NCBI GenBank assembly: GCA_014874255.1
Contig: JACWAN010000086.1
Span: 1 to 59,473 of the forward strand
Direction of reading: 5' to 3'
Origin: Candidatus Woesearchaeota archaeon
GTDB lineage: Archaea > Nanobdellota > Nanobdellia > Woesearchaeales > UBA525
DNA length: 59,473 bases
The notes below the pieces were generated by a model that made no database searches, was not told where the DNA came from, and saw nothing but the letters and a program-made list of their open reading frames with translations. Of this stretch, positions 41-59,473 are shown piece by piece. The position numbers and the translations under genes were made by a program. Numbering within the stretch: the first letter of the stretch is position 1; each line of letters opens with the position of its first letter.

Positions 41-259
41 CGCACGCAGGCGAATTTTCGCACTACGATGCGAGGGGCGCTTACGAGCCTGCGAGTAACC
101 TCGGAGCGCAAGAGCGCGACGATGAGCAGTCTTTGCTCCGCGGCATTCCTCCCGCCATAGTCAGTCACTCAACACCCCGTAGGGGCGACCCCTGTCAATC
201 GTCGTCGTGAAAGAAGACGCCTCGCCTGAAGCCGGCGACAGTCCATTCGCAACAGAGCC
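41..259 (-). mobile_element. R-family MITE-like element, eroded copy R7 (inverted relative to R1-R3)
   Basis: The reverse complement carries the family core: GTCGCCGGC..GGCGAGGCG, and GGGGTCGCCCCTACGGGG as the rc of 175-192. The right end ATTCGCAACAGAGCC (245-259) and left AGGCGAAT (48-55) resemble the family TIRs but are degenerate. Confidence 0.4.
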
Positions 260-2496: not shown

Positions 2497-2620
2497 CAAG
2501 GTTGCCACGGAGAACCCACTCTCCCATCCGGTCCGAGGTCTAGACGGACGCTCACGATTATGCAGTCGCTCATGCTCCTGCATGTTCGCGCCCGGGTCTT
2601 GCTCCAAGGCGGCAACCTTG
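2497..2620 (+). ncRNA. S-family structured element, copy A (candidate ncRNA, function unknown)
   Basis: Closing stem CAAGGTTGCC (2497-2506) / GGCAACCTTG (2611-2620). Conserved blocks TCCGGTCCGAG (2527-2537), GGACGCTCAC, CATGTTCGCGCCC and CCAAGG. Apical hairpin ATGCAG/CTGCAT. Confidence 0.5.
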
Positions 2621-2660
2621 TTGAGATTACTATGTGTTCTCTCCCCCCTTTCTCCTCTCC

Positions 2661-2825
2661 GGCTCTTAGGCAAATGGTGTGTCGCCGGCCAGAGGGCGAG
2701 GCATGAGGAGAACACAGCAGAAGAGGTCGGGGGGTCGCCCCATACGGGGGTGACCGGAGCGGCGGGGAACGAAGCGGTTGCCGAGCAGCCGGCGACACCG
2801 TCGGAGGCGAATTTGCCTAAGAGTC
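2661..2825. mobile_element. R-family MITE, copy R1 (165 bp)
   Basis: TIRs GGCTCTTAGGCAAAT / ATTTGCCTAAGAGTC. Perfect 9-bp flanking direct repeat CTCCTCTCC (2652-2660 and 2826-2834). Confidence 0.8.
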
Positions 2826-2836
2826 CTCCTCTCCCT

Positions 2837-2848
2837 AAAATTTATATA
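2837..2848 (+). promoter_or_regulatory. TATA-like box upstream of ppdK
   Basis: AAAATTTATATA lies 11 bp after the R1 end. ppdK ATG 3010 implies a leader of about 135 nt. Confidence 0.35.
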
Positions 2849-5734: not shown

Positions 5735-5870
5735 GTTTAACACATTTTTCTTTCTCTCTCCGTTCTCTTCAGGTCTCTTTTCACCCTCCCGCACATCTTT
5801 TTTATTTTTATATAACTTATTTCCGGATAACTCAGTCCCGATTTTATGCGGTTCGCTCTTCCTGTGCGAC

Positions 5871-6035
5871 GGCTCTTGGGCAAATGCTGTGTTGCCGGCC
5901 AAAGGGCGACCCGTAGCAGAGAATGAAGCAAAGGAGGAGAGGGGGTTGTCCCCCACGGGGAGCTCCGCTGACGCGAAGAACGCAGCGACACGGGTCGCAG
6001 CCGGCAACACCGCGAAGCGAATTCGCCTAAGAGCC
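5871..6035. mobile_element. R-family MITE, copy R2 (165 bp)
   Basis: TIRs GGCTCTTGGGCAAAT / ATTCGCCTAAGAGCC. Perfect 9-bp direct repeat CTGTGCGAC (5862-5870 and 6036-6044). Confidence 0.8.
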
Positions 6036-6045
6036 CTGTGCGACG

Positions 6046-6057
6046 AAAGCTATAAAC
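6046..6057 (+). promoter_or_regulatory. TATA-like box
   Basis: AAAGCTATAAAC lies 10 bp after the R2 end. It would favour ATG 6098 as the real start of the next CDS. Confidence 0.4.
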
Positions 6058-6058
6058 T

Positions 6059-6802: not shown

Positions 6803-6913
6803 GGGCGTCGCGGAGCATTTGTTCTCCCTCCGGTCCGAGGTTTAGTCGGGCGCTCACCGTGATGGCGCTGTTGCGCCATGTTCGCGCCCGTCAATCGTTC
6901 CAAGGCGACGCCC
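6803..6913 (+). ncRNA. S-family structured element, copy B
   Basis: Closing stem GGGCGTCGC/GCGACGCCC. Hairpin GGAG-CATTTGTT-CTCC. Blocks TCCGGTCCGAGG and GGGCGCTCAC. Apical hairpin ATGGCGC/GCGCCAT, then GTTCGCGCCC and CCAAGG. Confidence 0.5.
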
Positions 6914-15183: not shown

Positions 15184-15720
15184 ATGGCGACACAGAAGCT
15201 GATACTCATGAATCCCATGCGTCAGATCCGGATCGAGAAGCTCACCCTGAATATCGGGGCGGGCAAGGACCAGGCGATCCTCGCCAAGGGCGAGAAGCTC
15301 ATCGAGCAGCTCGCGGGCATCAGGCCGGTCAAGACGAAGACGCAGAAGAGGATCCCTGCATGGGGCCTCAGGCCGGGGCTGCCCATCGGGCTGAAGCTCA
15401 CGATCAGGGGCGAGGCGGCCGAGAAGCTCATCCCGCGCCTGCTCGCCGCGAAGTCCAACAAGCTCAAGCCGAGCAACCTCGACGAAGCCGGCAATGTCAG
15501 CTTCGGCATCCCCGAGTACATCGACATCGAGGGCGCGAAGTACGACCCCGAGATCGGGATCATCGGCCTCCAGGCCTGCATCACGCTCGAGCGGCCGGGC
15601 TACCGGACCAAGCGCAGGCGCGTCCGGCCGGCGAAGCCGGGCCAGCAGCACGTCATCGCCCCGGAAGAGGCGATCGCCTTCATGGGTGAGCGCTTCAAGA
15701 CGCGGTTCGAGGAGGAGTAA
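15184..15720 (+). CDS. rpl5: 50S ribosomal protein uL5
   Basis: ATG 15184 lies inside ORF 14935..15720. Signature MRQIRIEKLTLNIGAG..FGIPEYIDI. Confidence 0.9.
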   Translation: MATQKLILMNPMRQIRIEKLTLNIGAGKDQAILAKGEKLIEQLAGIRPVKTKTQKRIPAWGLRPGLPIGLKLTIRGEAAEKLIPRLLAAKSNKLKPSNLDEAGNVSFGIPEYIDIEGAKYDPEIGIIGLQACITLERPGYRTKRRRVRPAKPGQQHVIAPEEAIAFMGERFKTRFEEE

Positions 15721-15722
15721 GG

Positions 15723-15953
15723 ATGACCACCACCAATCACACCAAGGTCCTCAAGCAGATCGGGAAGAAGCCCGGCAAGTACGCGAAGTACCTCAAGAAC
15801 AACCTGCCGAAGGAGCGCGCGTACGGCGCCGCCACGAAGAAGTGCCAGCACTGCGGCAATCCGCACGCCCACGTGGGCAAGTACGGCATCAACCTGTGCC
15901 GCAAGTGCTTCCGCGACTACGCGCTCGAGCTCGGCTTCAAGCAGTACAGCTGA
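15723..15953 (+). CDS. rps14: 30S ribosomal protein uS14 (zinc type)
   Basis: CQHCGN..LCRKCFRDYA zinc ribbon. The position between rpl5 and rps8 is conserved. Confidence 0.88.
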   Translation: MTTTNHTKVLKQIGKKPGKYAKYLKNNLPKERAYGAATKKCQHCGNPHAHVGKYGINLCRKCFRDYALELGFKQYS

Positions 15954-25525: not shown

Positions 25526-25561
25526 ACCCTCTTTTCCCTTTCCTTTTTCCCGTTTCTCTCC

Positions 25562-25766
25562 GGCTCTTAGGCGAATCACGTCCGTGGCCGTCACCGGCTG
25601 CTCGGCAATCGCTTCTCCTCTCGAAAGCGCTCCTCCCCGTAAGGGGCATGGTCACTCCATTCCCAGGTTCCTCGGAGCCTCGGAACCATCCCCTCCGTCG
25701 CGCTCCGCCCCCCTTCCTCGCTCGCCTCACCCTCTGGCCGGTGACGACTCCATCTGCCTAAGAGCC
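25562..25766. mobile_element. R-family MITE, copy R4 (205 bp, interior inverted relative to R1)
   Basis: TIRs GGCTCTTAGGCGAAT / ATCTGCCTAAGAGCC. Flanks TTTCTCTCC and TTTCTATTC match at 7/9. The interior rc matches R1 (GTCACCGGCCAGAGGGTGAGGC ... TTGCCGAGCAGCCGGTGAC). Confidence 0.75.
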
Positions 25767-25777
25767 TTTCTATTCGC

Positions 25778-25790
25778 AATCAATAAAAAG
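25778..25790 (+). promoter_or_regulatory. TATA-like box, leaderless membrane-protein transcript
   Basis: AATCAATAAAAAG lies 11 bp after the R4 end and is centred about 27 nt before ATG 25812. Confidence 0.4.
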
Positions 25791-30118: not shown

Positions 30119-30238
30119 CGTTCTCATCGCCACGGCCGGTTGTTCTCCCTCCGGTCCGAGGAAAGAACGGGCGCTCACGCAGATGGTCCGCGGACCATGT
30201 TCGCGCCCGGGTCTTGTGCCAAGGTGGCGATGAGAACG
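30119..30238 (+). ncRNA. S-family structured element, copy C
   Basis: 15-bp closing stem CGTTCTCATCGCCAC/GTGGCGATGAGAACG. Blocks TCCGGTCCGAGG and GGGCGCTCAC. Apical hairpin ATGGTCC-GCG-GGACCAT, then GTTCGCGCCC and CCAAGG. Confidence 0.55.
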
Positions 30239-33559: not shown

Positions 33560-33725
33560 CTTCATCGCCACGGCCTAGCTGTCCTCGCTCCGCTGCGGGG
33601 CGATCGTCGGGCGCTCACGATTATGCAGTCGCTTCGGTCCAGTCACTGCGTTCCTGGCCGACTCGTATAACTCGTCGCTCCCGCATGTTCGCGCCCGTCA
33701 ATCGTGCCAAGGTGGCGATGAAGCT
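33558..33725 (+). ncRNA. S-family structured element, copy D (variant with ~60-nt insertion)
   Basis: 14-bp closing stem AGCTTCATCGCCAC/GTGGCGATGAAGCT. Blocks GGGCGCTCACGATTATGCAGTCGCT ... CATGTTCGCGCCC and CCAAGG. The first hairpin is replaced by TCGCTCCGC-T-GCGGGGCGA. Confidence 0.5.
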
Positions 33726-34079: not shown

Positions 34080-34120
34080 GAACGTCGTTTCGTGAACGCG
34101 GTTCCGGTTCGGAGCGCGGC

Positions 34121-34187
34121 GCCGGCCAAAGGGCGAGGCGTGGCGAAGAAAAGAGCAATGAGCGACGGGGGTCGCCCCCCTACGGGG
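34121..34187 (+). repeat. R-family core without TIRs (R5)
   Basis: GCCGGCCAAAGGGCGAGGCGTGGCGAAGAAAAG..GGGGGTCGCCCCCCTACGGGG. The 28-nt purine-rich spacer has the same length as in R1. Confidence 0.55.
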
Positions 34188-34341
34188 CGTCTCCGAGCCA
34201 CACGAGGAGAAACAGGGGCGCGTCTGCGCGACTGTGTCGTGGAGTGTGCGATAACACTCGCGATACGCCGAGCATGTCCGAGTCATACGAGGACCGGCAG
34301 GAGCGTCAGCGACTGCAGCCCGCGCCGCTCGAAGAACAAGA

Positions 34342-41651: not shown

Positions 41652-41708
41652 CTTGGAGCTTGATATGCTGCTACAAGACCGTCAGTATTTAAATGTTTTG
41701 GGGATGCG

Positions 41709-41876
41709 GGCTCTTAGACAAATGAGGTGTTGCCGGCCAAAGGGCGACCCGTAGCGATAAGAAGAAACGGAGAGTTGAGGGGGTTGCCCCCTACGGGGCT
41801 TCAACGATGCAGCGAAGAACGAAACGACACGGGTCGCAGCCGGCAACACCGCCGAAGGTGAATTTGCCTAAGAGCC
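41709..41876. mobile_element. R-family MITE, copy R3 (168 bp)
   Basis: TIRs GGCTCTTAGACAAAT / ATTTGCCTAAGAGCC. The flanking direct repeat is at least GGATGCG (41702-41708 and 41877-41883). Confidence 0.8.
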
Positions 41877-41948
41877 GGATGCGGCCGCGATGAAAATGCG
41901 GGTCACCGTCCTTCCCTCCGCCGGCCGATCCGTCGCCGGTAGTCGCGC

Positions 41949-42096
41949 CGTGGTCGCTGCTGCTCCCGGGTTCCTCGTATGACTCGGAACCGTGGTCGCT
42001 GCTGCTCCCGGGTTCCTCGTATGACTCGGAACCGTGGTCGCTGCTGCTCCCGGGTTCCTCGTATGACTCGGAACCGTGGTCGCTGCTGCTCCCGGG
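41949..42096. repeat. perfect 42-bp tandem repeat, 3.5 copies
   Basis: Unit CGTGGTCGCTGCTGCTCCCGGGTTCCTCGTATGACTCGGAAC at 41949, 41991 and 42033, with a partial copy at 42075-42096. Confidence 0.9.
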
Positions 42097-42144
42097 CGCT
42101 CCTACCGTCAGAACAGTCGCCGGTAGTCGCGCCACCCTCCTTTC

Positions 42145-42543
42145 TCAGCGCAACCGTTCTTCGAGGAGTTTCGAGAGCTTGCCGATGATGGCCTGGATGC
42201 GCGGCACGTTCCGGCTGACGTAGTCCGCGGGCACCATGAACCCTTCGTACGCAATCCTGTTCCGGTACTCCCTGAGCCCCTGCAGGAAGACCCTCGTCCC
42301 CTCTCCGAGCAGGTATTCCTTGCACGCATGGTCGATCAGCCGGGTGTGCGCGCCGTCGCCCTGCGTCTTGACGCCCTCGACGGCCGCGAGCGCCTCGAGC
42401 AGCTTGTGGATGATGTCGTAGTAGTCGGTCAGGGTGTTGGAGGGATAGGCCTCCTTCTCGGTCAGTTCGAGCCGTTCGAGGGTGACCATCGCCATCTTCC
42501 TGAGCGAGGCGGCCTTCTGCGGGTCCGGACGCACCTTCCGCAT
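42145..42543 (-). CDS. HEPN-domain protein (toxin partner of MNT)
   Basis: 132 aa, all-alpha, with LREYRNRIAYEG in the motif region. Its start abuts the stop of the upstream nucleotidyltransferase. Confidence 0.6.
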   Translation of the reverse strand: MRKVRPDPQKAASLRKMAMVTLERLELTEKEAYPSNTLTDYYDIIHKLLEALAAVEGVKTQGDGAHTRLIDHACKEYLLGEGTRVFLQGLREYRNRIAYEGFMVPADYVSRNVPRIQAIIGKLSKLLEERLR

Positions 42544-57504: not shown

Positions 57505-57677
57505 GGGCGCCGCGGAGATTTTGTTCTCCCGCACGGAACGTGTTCCGCGTTCCGGCGCCCCGGCAGCCTCTGGCTGCCGTTGGCTCCGGTCCGAGATATT
57601 ATCGGGCGCTCACGTAGATGGCCTCGCAAAAACGCGAGCCCATGTTCGCGCCCGGACATCGCTCCAAGGCGGCGCCC
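57505..57677 (+). ncRNA. S-family structured element, copy E (with ~55-nt insertion)
   Basis: Closing stem GGGCGCCGC/GCGGCGCCC. Hairpin GGAG-ATTTTGTT-CTCC. Blocks TCCGGTCCGAG and GGGCGCTCAC. Apical hairpin ATGGCCTCGC/GCGAGCCCAT, then GTTCGCGCCC and CCAAGG. TATA-like CTATATTG is centred about 25 nt upstream. Confidence 0.55.
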
Positions 57678-59296: not shown

Positions 59297-59473
59297 GTTC
59301 TCAGCGCCGACACCACCGCCTTCAGGCGACGCGCTGCTGCTCCGTCGCTTCGGCTCCTGATCGACTCGTATGACCCGTCGCTCTGGCGCACGGGTTCGTC
59401 CTCGAACCCTTTGCGCCTCGGGACTCCTGGCCGTCGTCCGGATGCGTCGACCGAGTCCAGTGGAATCGCGTCC

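Follow-up and report, generated by a model that had tools for sequence, protein, structure and literature searches.

The R family of a Woesearchaeota-type DPANN archaeon is a high-copy family of non-autonomous DNA transposons and, by kind, one of standard MITEs with terminal inverted repeats (TIRs). Its members are, with little doubt, non-coding fold-back elements that are moved by an IS903-like IS and sited at promoter edges. The window, i.e. the whole stretch of 59,473 nucleotides that was analysed, is contig C64 of a 1.29-Mb MAG (G000) with 122 contigs, 61.7% GC and 81.5% completeness. The MITE interpretation, made originally in a first-pass annotation from the sequence of the window, is supported by the present analysis. 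The three checks proposed there were a genome-wide count of copies, a search for an IS with the same ends, and a comparison of filled and empty sites. They yielded many more copies in the genome and in related genomes, an IS with matching 15-bp TIRs and 9-bp duplications, and unoccupied sites in the sister species G006.

The four intact copies in the window (R1–R4; 165, 165, 168 and 205 bp) were all found where the first-pass annotation had placed them, and the 15-bp TIRs described there, GGCTCTTAGGCAAAT and ATTTGCCTAAGAGCC, carry 0–1 substitutions per end. Nine TIR matches with at most three mismatches occur in the window against 0.79 expected, and none of 100 shuffles gave nine. R1 is 99.4% identical to a copy elsewhere in the MAG (G000:C106:8489-8651). 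All window copies are intergenic, and the genes of the window are archaeal, with a primase large subunit, a KOW-domain protein and a pyruvate phosphate dikinase among them. Coordinates of the elements and their flanks are given in Table 1.

The proposed 9-bp flanking direct repeats are exact for R1 and R2 but match at only 7 of 9 positions for R4, and for R3 they are limited to 7 nt (GGATGCG, offset by 2). The R3 repeat is cut short on the right, where the flank meets the end of another element, GGCCGCGATGAAAAT at 41883. This junction is the sole one with a 6-nt gap; the 20 other junctions are 9 nt. The interior of R4 had been described as inverted; in fact, R4 is wholly reversed relative to R1 and has a longer, different core. 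The suggested division into R1/R4 and R2/R3 subfamilies holds for R2 and R3, which cluster together, but R1 and R4 belong to separate clusters and have only about 45–55 bp per end in common. An eroded copy had been suggested at 41–259; its last part (219–259) resembles an element end, but 41–218 is unrecognisable. A partial fifth element at the 3' end of the window (~59333–59473) had been missed. The terminal 141 nt of the window are an exact match to the ends of contigs C88 and C44, and thus the assembly breaks inside a repeat.

Table 1. R-family elements, their flanks and associated features in the window
Feature	Position	Strand	Comment
Degenerate element end (…GCCGGCGACAGTCCATTCGCAACAGAGCC)	219–259	+	~42 nt, 78.6% identity, E about 9e-4
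R1 left target-site duplication CTCCTCTCC	2652–2660		identical to 2826–2834
R1, 165-bp MITE, R1-type subfamily	2661–2825	+	TIRs GGCTCTTAGGCAAAT / ATTTGCCTAAGAGTC
R1 right target-site duplication CTCCTCTCC	2826–2834
BRE-like CTAAAA and TATA-like TTTATATA	2835–2848	+	abuts R1 duplication; upstream of pyruvate phosphate dikinase gene
R2 left target-site duplication CTGTGCGAC	5862–5870		exact 9-mer
R2, 165-bp MITE, R2/R3-type subfamily	5871–6035	+	site empty in sister species G006
R2 right target-site duplication CTGTGCGAC	6036–6044
BRE-like GAAAGC and TATA-like TATAAACT	6045–6058	+	abuts R2 duplication; also at G006 empty site
R4 left flank TTTCTCTCC	25553–25561		7/9 match to right flank
R4, 205-bp MITE, separate 205–206-bp subfamily	25562–25766	-	orientation opposite to R1
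R4 right flank TTTCTATTC, then GCAATC and AATAAAAA (BRE/TATA-like)	25767–25789	+
TIR-less stretch like MITE interior positions 23–97	34120–34195	+	75–80% identity; without TIR, without duplication
R3 left flank: CGCATCCCC (target), AAAAC and ATTTAAATA (BRE/TATA-like)	41686–41708	-	promoter-like box points away from R3
R3, 168-bp MITE, R2/R3-type subfamily	41709–41876	+
R3 right duplication remnant GGATGCG, into solo second-family end GGCCGCGATGAAAAT	41877–41897	+	second-family end at 41883–41897
Partial element, 223–238-bp R-type subfamily	~59333–59473	-	cut by contig end

Across the MAG, 230 TIR matches and 74 paired elements were identified. Element sizes range from 134 to 280 bp, with a cluster at 165, 166 and 168 bp and minor classes of 134–136, 204–206, 219–224 and 278–280 bp, and the elements are too short to encode a transposase. 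Duplications were scored for the 69 paired elements with both flanks on the contig. Direct flanks of 9 nt are exact in 33 of these, match with at most one mismatch in 41 and with at most two in 46; each of the duplication lengths 5–8 and 10–13 nt fits 0–1 elements of the 69. About a third of the elements have no clean duplication. Some of these cases can be put down to tandem arrays or to recombination of one copy with another; others are unaccounted for. Clustering gave two large subfamilies, of the R1 type and of the R2/R3 type, with 23 complete members apiece, and about eight small ones. Identity within subfamilies reaches 99.4%, and the four complete members of the R4-type subfamily (205–206 bp) are 92–96% identical to each other. 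The R-like intervals defined by BLAST number 214 and occupy 2.36% of the genome; 59 of the 244 contig ends fall within such an interval.

Folding of single-stranded DNA recovered the long hairpin that the elements had been predicted to form, with energies of -43.2 and -40.9 kcal/mol and z-scores of -4.6 and -4.1, the z-score of -4.1 being that of R1. An alignment of 53 distinct elements of 160–172 bp shows conservation of three stems (the TIR stem, a subterminal one and an inner one), and double-sided stem changes distinguish the subfamilies. Pair 24–144 is CG in 31 elements and UA in 20, pair 41–132 is GC in 27 and CG in 21, and pair 44–129 is AU in 26 and GC in 20. The double-sided changes reflect few evolutionary events, and either selection on the hairpin or a fold-back origin of the MITEs could be their source.

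As the first-pass annotation had pointed out in calling the elements non-autonomous, the window contains no transposase gene. The full-length cognate IS is not assembled in the 81.5%-complete MAG, which has only a 367-bp fragment of it. In the list of unpaired TIRs, one TIR has a non-MITE interior (G000:C22:367-1); it is followed by a 57-nt leader that bears a hairpin and by an ORF beginning MTKQERLIDKAK. Contig C22 ends after 99 codons of this transposase ORF and overlaps contig C75 by exactly 141 nt. In C75, the ORF stops and is followed by CCTCCTCGA, the same 9-mer that precedes the TIR. The presence of CCTCCTCGA on both sides means that the MAG carries a 367-bp 5' fragment of an IS within a 9-bp repeat. 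Eight of the last 15 nt of the fragment, the terminal GCC among them, agree with the right TIR, and we speculate that a cryptic end was used. With its duplications, the fragment may be a MITE in the making. The ISL3, IS256, IS1, IS1595 and IS6 families, weighed as partners by their TIRs and duplication lengths, were dropped once this fragment, with its transposase ORF linked to the TIR, had come to light.

Six loci were recovered from metagenomes with the 99 transposase residues as query. Elements of 888–889 bp with exact GGCTCTTAGGCAAAT and ATTTGCCTAAGAGCC ends are present at L021 and L020, a variant IS (GGCTCTTTAGCAAAT) with the 9-bp duplication GTGGCCGCC at L018, and a further variant at L022. 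Full ISs of 888–890 bp with the R-family ends were found on metagenome contigs L020, L021 and L031–L040, and at least 24 contigs from groundwater-type metagenomes encode the L021 protein of 270 aa, every time in an 888-bp unit. Most full-length metagenome copies have no matching flanks on one contig, and the flanks are shuffled between contigs, as a repeat would lead one to expect (e.g. the left flank of L035 is the right flank of L033), which we read as assembly chimerism across repeat copies. Pairing of flanks across contigs, with L035/L033 reconstructed in this way, yields the 9-bp duplications GGCAGGCGC and GATGCGCC[C/T].

The transposase matches the Pfam model DDE_Tnp_1 (PF01609) with 47.2 bits, well over the threshold of 23. 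Among NCBIfam models, it matches the IS5-family model NF033579 best, with a score of 83.6 bits that lies below the cut-off of 140, and we therefore label it IS5-family-like or IS903-like and not a member of the equivalog; paralogues score 124.7 and 139 bits. The protein carries the DDE and Y-(2)-R-(3)-E-(6)-K signature residues, and the motifs AID.T, DK.[YF]D and Y..R...E......K are conserved in seven members of the clade. A clade paralogue (G001:C22) has ~23% identity to IS903B over 81% of the length (E = 2e-6) and about 28% identity to haloarchaeal IS5-family transposases. The named homologues of the transposase are from Nanoarchaeota/Nanoarchaeia MAGs. All tabulated IS903-group ISs of Paracoccus make 9-bp duplications, and the tabulated lengths are 2–4 bp for the IS427 group and 4–6 bp for the IS5 group (PMC3281130); a 9-bp duplication is characteristic of the IS903 group among IS5-family elements. 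Judging from these similarities, the partner is probably an IS903-like, IS5-family compact IS of ~888 bp, the IS903B comparison having been made via the paralogue. Its transposase would mobilise the R MITEs in trans; the MITEs and the IS have only the 15-bp TIR in common. The R family may be active at present, as suggested by pairs up to 99.4% identical and by the assembly branch in the IS fragment.

Related compact ISs of 884–901 bp in this genus and the neighbouring one have different ends: GGGTTTGTAGAAAGT in UBA153, AGGTTAGTAGAAAGT in G012 and GGCCGCGATGAAAAT in G000:C66. All checkable compact ISs of these other TIR flavours make 9-bp duplications. The C66 IS encodes the sole intact DDE_Tnp_1 protein of the MAG; it was rejected as the partner of the R family, as its ends differ and it serves a second MITE family. 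This second family, with GGCCGCGATGAAAAT ends, is represented in the MAG by 125 end matches, 28 pairs of 134–168 bp and 19 exact 9-bp duplications.

The R-family TIR has a patchy distribution. Matches with at most one mismatch in 41 related genomes number 193 (G000), 45, 30, 10 and 2; the other 36 genomes have 0–1, which is no higher than in the reversed-pattern control. The carriers are four of the eight genomes of the genus (193, 45, 30 and 2) and one genome of the neighbouring genus (10). Among GTDB species representatives, complete elements with exact TIRs were found only in Candidatus Woesearchaeota archaeon UBA153, which is the same-genus genome G001.

A search for orthologous loci via the pyruvate phosphate dikinase gave two partial matches, one of which contains the empty R2 site. 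In this genome, that of the sister species G006 (95% amino-acid identity), the R2 site is a single CCATGCGAC, and the alignment gap of 174 nt equals 165 + 9. Downstream of the dikinase gene, G006 reads …TTCGTTCTTCC-CATGCGAC-GAAAGCCATAAA… and the window reads …CTGTGCGAC-R2-CTGTGCGAC-GAAAGCTATAAA…. The flanks of 20 more insertions of the MAG were joined and used to search seven genomes of the genus. Aligning filled and empty sites globally with MAFFT misplaced the large gap, and local alignment of the reconstructed empty sites was used. For the insertions C77:2993, C28:7480 and C43:5394, G006 has an uninterrupted sequence with no element, with 92%, ~85% and ~84% identity over the junction, and the sites of C75:31826 and C56:1740 are likewise empty. 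In total, G006 has four clean empty sites (including C64:5871, which is R2) and two further ones. Two other targets are occupied by different elements in the two genomes: a 136-bp-class element in G006 stands against a 206-bp element in the MAG, and an element with GGGTCTGTAGAAAGT ends against a 280-bp R element.

Outward from an element, usually on one side, the 9-nt duplication is followed by R-N-A-A-N-N and TTTWTAWA, a layout that we take to be the archaeal BRE/TATA. The site consensus is N8-C / R-N-A-A-N-N-TTTWTAWA. Under a strict criterion, in which the first all-A/T 7-mer has to lie at an offset of 12–17 nt from the element end, a TATA-like box is in register at 27 of 42 sites (binomial p about 3.5e-14) and is lacking at 15. 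The same criterion is satisfied at 12–13% of the other positions within 20–40 nt of these sites, at 8% of those up to 80 nt away and at 0.76% of positions drawn at random from the genome. When flanks with any all-A/T 7-mer are considered, it lies at an offset of 14–16 in 28 of 44. An ORF of at least 70 aa is present at 23 of the 25 oriented sites; its start is at a median distance of 30 nt from the base with which the box begins, in many cases at exactly 30 nt and with ATG, which fits the promoters of leaderless mRNAs. R1–R4 all conform to this promoter-edge register, and an ORF of 323 aa begins 30 nt past the box adjacent to R4. Since the box is also present at the empty sites of G006, it was not brought by the element.

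The elements occur in either orientation relative to the promoter. Of 16 second-family MITEs, 12 have the identical register, as do most of the full-length ISs, namely those in G000:C66, G012 (two copies), L018, L020, L022, L031, L035 and L036. IS903 is known for a palindromic target pattern; no palindromic or mirror pattern was seen in the upstream flank of the sites. Twenty pairs of adjacent elements (R-R, R-G and G-G) are spaced exactly 9 nt apart; all other gaps up to 40 nt between adjacent elements amount to seven. These pairs contain the same 9-mer three times, which indicates that one target was hit repeatedly.

The promoter-edge position probably reflects target selection by the transposase family. 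Purifying selection, by which elements would insert anywhere and only those just upstream of core promoters would survive in a gene-dense genome, seems an unlikely explanation, although it could account for part of the promoter adjacency: the genome is compact with short intergenic spacers, the window copies are all intergenic, and 15 of 42 sites have no in-register box. What it explains poorly is the sharpness of the register, with the A/T 7-mer confined to three offsets in 28 of 44 flanks, and the low frequency (12–13%) with which the criterion holds at neighbouring positions within 20–40 nt, which are mostly non-coding too. Upstream of R1, at least 190 nt of non-coding DNA were available as a landing place. 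Moreover, the register is common to two transposase lineages and to ISs of unrelated metagenomes, and an identical 9-mer was re-used in the 20 tandem pairs. That two transposase lineages hit one 9-mer again and again, and that the sister species holds different elements at a shared site, makes selection alone hard to credit.

Two further explanations concern the nature of the elements themselves. If they were structured non-coding RNA genes or a duplicated cis-regulatory RNA motif with incidental flanking repeats, their stable fold (z about -4 to -4.6), the compensatory changes between subfamilies and the constant adjacency to promoters would be natural. We regard this as very improbable, since the Rfam scan of the whole window at gathering thresholds gave no match, the elements lie in both orientations relative to the adjacent promoter, their presence or absence is precise with a single 9-mer at the empty site, and their ends are the same as those of a transposase-encoding IS. 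Long hairpins with stem pairing kept through double-sided changes would also suit REP/REPIN-like palindromes spread by a Y1 (RAYT/IS200-type) HUH transposase, and both TIR-less core copies and one Y1_Tnp-like ORF (C103:7456-7680) are present in the genome. However, HUH Y1 transposases (IS200/IS605, RAYTs) neither duplicate their target nor use TIRs, no link between the R elements and the Y1_Tnp ORF was seen, and the exact 9-bp duplications together with a DDE-encoding IS with identical TIRs explain the family, so that an origin of the REP/REPIN kind is hardly conceivable.

The cue for target selection by the transposase would be either the BRE/TATA sequence or its protein-bound, bent state. 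We tentatively suggest the second as a possibility, in which the transposase clade and its MITEs locate their targets by tethering to bound TBP/TFB, i.e. to the pre-initiation complex. The transposase would dock on TBP/TFB-bound, sharply bent BRE/TATA DNA, and the 9-bp staggered cut would fall at the upstream edge of the BRE. If true, this would account for a register exact to one base, for insertion in both orientations and for the repeated use of one 9-mer by two lineages, and the system would be an archaeal DNA-transposon counterpart of Ty3/TFIIIB and TnGBS sigma-A targeting. Yeast Ty3, an LTR retrotransposon with an integrase, integrates at Pol III start sites via TFIIIB (TBP and Brf1). 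The likeness to Ty3 lies in base-precise integration beside the binding site of a TBP/TFB-type factor; tethering to a transcription factor is demonstrated for Ty3 and is conjecture here.

TnGBS ICEs and ISLre2-type elements are bacterial, encode Mutator-like transposases and integrate upstream of sigma-A promoters (PMC3942029). Like the elements described here, they are DDE transposons that keep a short, constant distance to the core promoter upstream of which they insert, and they leave this promoter intact. In contrast to their Mutator-like enzymes, the present transposase matches only DDE_Tnp_1/IS5-type models; their targets are -35/-10 promoters hit in an oriented manner, whereas the R family uses archaeal BRE/TATA sites in both orientations. 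The resemblance is thus one of behaviour and not of ancestry. With IS903, the partner IS shares a single ORF of the DDE_Tnp_1 type, the Y-(2)-R-(3)-E-(6)-K signature, TIRs of ~15–18 bp that start with GG and 9-bp duplications. It differs from this bacterial IS in its length (888 bp rather than about 1050 bp), in its DPANN archaeal host and in its asymmetric, BRE/TATA-adjacent target.

The R elements resemble prokaryotic MITEs derived from or mobilised by IS5-family elements, and archaeal MITEs in general (review in PMC10969869, census in PMC11602168), in being small, non-coding, multi-copy, intergenic and capable of fold-back, in having TIRs identical to those of an autonomous IS and in the fixed length of the duplication. 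In contrast to these MITEs, the R family shares only the 15-bp TIR with its IS and comprises several subfamilies with unrelated cores and the same ends. In a census of prokaryotic MITEs, a density of 105 per Mb puts 'a Woesearchaea genome' among the most MITE-rich archaea; the genome is not described further there (PMC11602168). No description of the R family, its partner IS or the target preference was found in the literature searched, a 2026 survey of archaeal ISs says nothing of promoters, and a full-text literature search for archaeal IS or MITE targeting of TATA/BRE returned nothing relevant. Promoter-edge targeting appears to be undescribed for archaea.

The genome is a very small one of the DPANN group, yet more than 2% of it consists of one MITE family, and a second family is present in addition. 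The repeats break the assembly at about a quarter of contig ends, a practical warning for the reconstruction of MAGs. MITE subfamilies with unrelated cores, and even with different TIR flavours, use one target. Insertion with near single-base precision at the upstream edge of promoters provides a safe haven that tolerates a high copy number in a gene-dense genome. If the transposase reads the BRE/TATA sequence or the factors bound to it, the family would offer a handle on archaeal promoter architecture and possibly a tool for site-directed integration.

A second MITE family was found in the source Woesearchaeota genome (G000). Its ends, GGCCGCGATGAAA(AT), have 125 matches genome-wide, including 28 pairs that delimit elements of 134-168 bp; the family shows 9-bp duplications that are exact in 19 cases. 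Its partner IS carries the duplication ATCACCGGC. A solo end of the same family is located beside R3, one of the R-family copies in the window, together with a tandem repeat that falls within a minus-strand ORF (41903-42325).

Repeats, MITE-related elements and compared loci in the window, in G000 and in the sister species G006
Feature	Location	Description
Tandem repeat	window 41927-42096	42-bp unit, four copies, three identical; immediately right of R3
Partner IS of second MITE family	G000:C66:122-1020	intact, 899 bp; 277-aa transposase
Solo end of second MITE family	window 41883-41897	abuts R3
Two inverted MITE copies	G000:C69:10562-10726 and 15638-15802	
TIR-less repeat family (D16/D18)	window 2497-2620, 6819-6913, 30140-30232, 33600-33720, 57575-57677	
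MITE-core-like stretch	window 34120-34195	GCCGGCCAAAGGGCGAG…GGGGGTCGCCCC…TACGGGG
5' fragment of cognate IS	G000:C22:1-367 joined to G000:C75:1-150	367 bp; TIR, leader and 99 codons
G006 locus L027	G000 site C89:567	
G006 locus L028	G000 site C48:23417	
G006 locus L029	G000 site C56:1740	

The two inverted MITE copies of contig C69 have exchanged their flanks as reverse complements (AACCCAAGA/CCATCAATA vs TCTTGGGTT/TATTGATGG), which indicates an inversion of approximately 5 kb through recombination between them.

The IS903-like element that shares the R-family terminal inverted repeats (TIRs) is represented in G000 by a 5' fragment with CCTCCTCGA on both flanks. The right TIR is absent from this fragment; 8 of its last 15 nt agree with the TIR, and it terminates in an 11-bp palindrome. 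The contig break occurs at the fragment, where C22 and C75 overlap by 141 nt. The fragment may have been mobilised via a cryptic end, in which case it would be a MITE in the making.

Three loci of the sister species G006 were matched to insertion sites of G000. At L027 and L028, the target filled in G000 holds another element in G006, differing in size class or TIR flavour (terminal sequence); the flavour at L027 is GGGTCTGTAGAAAGT. At L029, G006 has no insertion in the target filled in G000; some 20 nt from this target lies a separate mini-element, roughly 70 bp long, whose ends are GGGTAAGTAGAAAGT. The differences between the two genomes at these loci reflect either reuse of insertion hot spots or replacement by gene conversion.

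The D16/D18 repeats form a family separate from the R family and have no TIRs; they adjoin several R copies in the window, and pieces of them occur inside some R-type elements (e.g. G000:C32:4347, C44:7728 and the 3' end of the window). The only match to Y1_Tnp (IS200/RAYT-type) in the G000 genome, at C103:7456-7680 (59 bits, 121-codon open frame), may be relevant to the TIR-less repeat families. The MITE-core-like stretch of the window has neither TIRs nor a duplication. Since the same core is also found in G006 with other TIR flavours, the elements seem to be modular, with cores and ends that can be exchanged.
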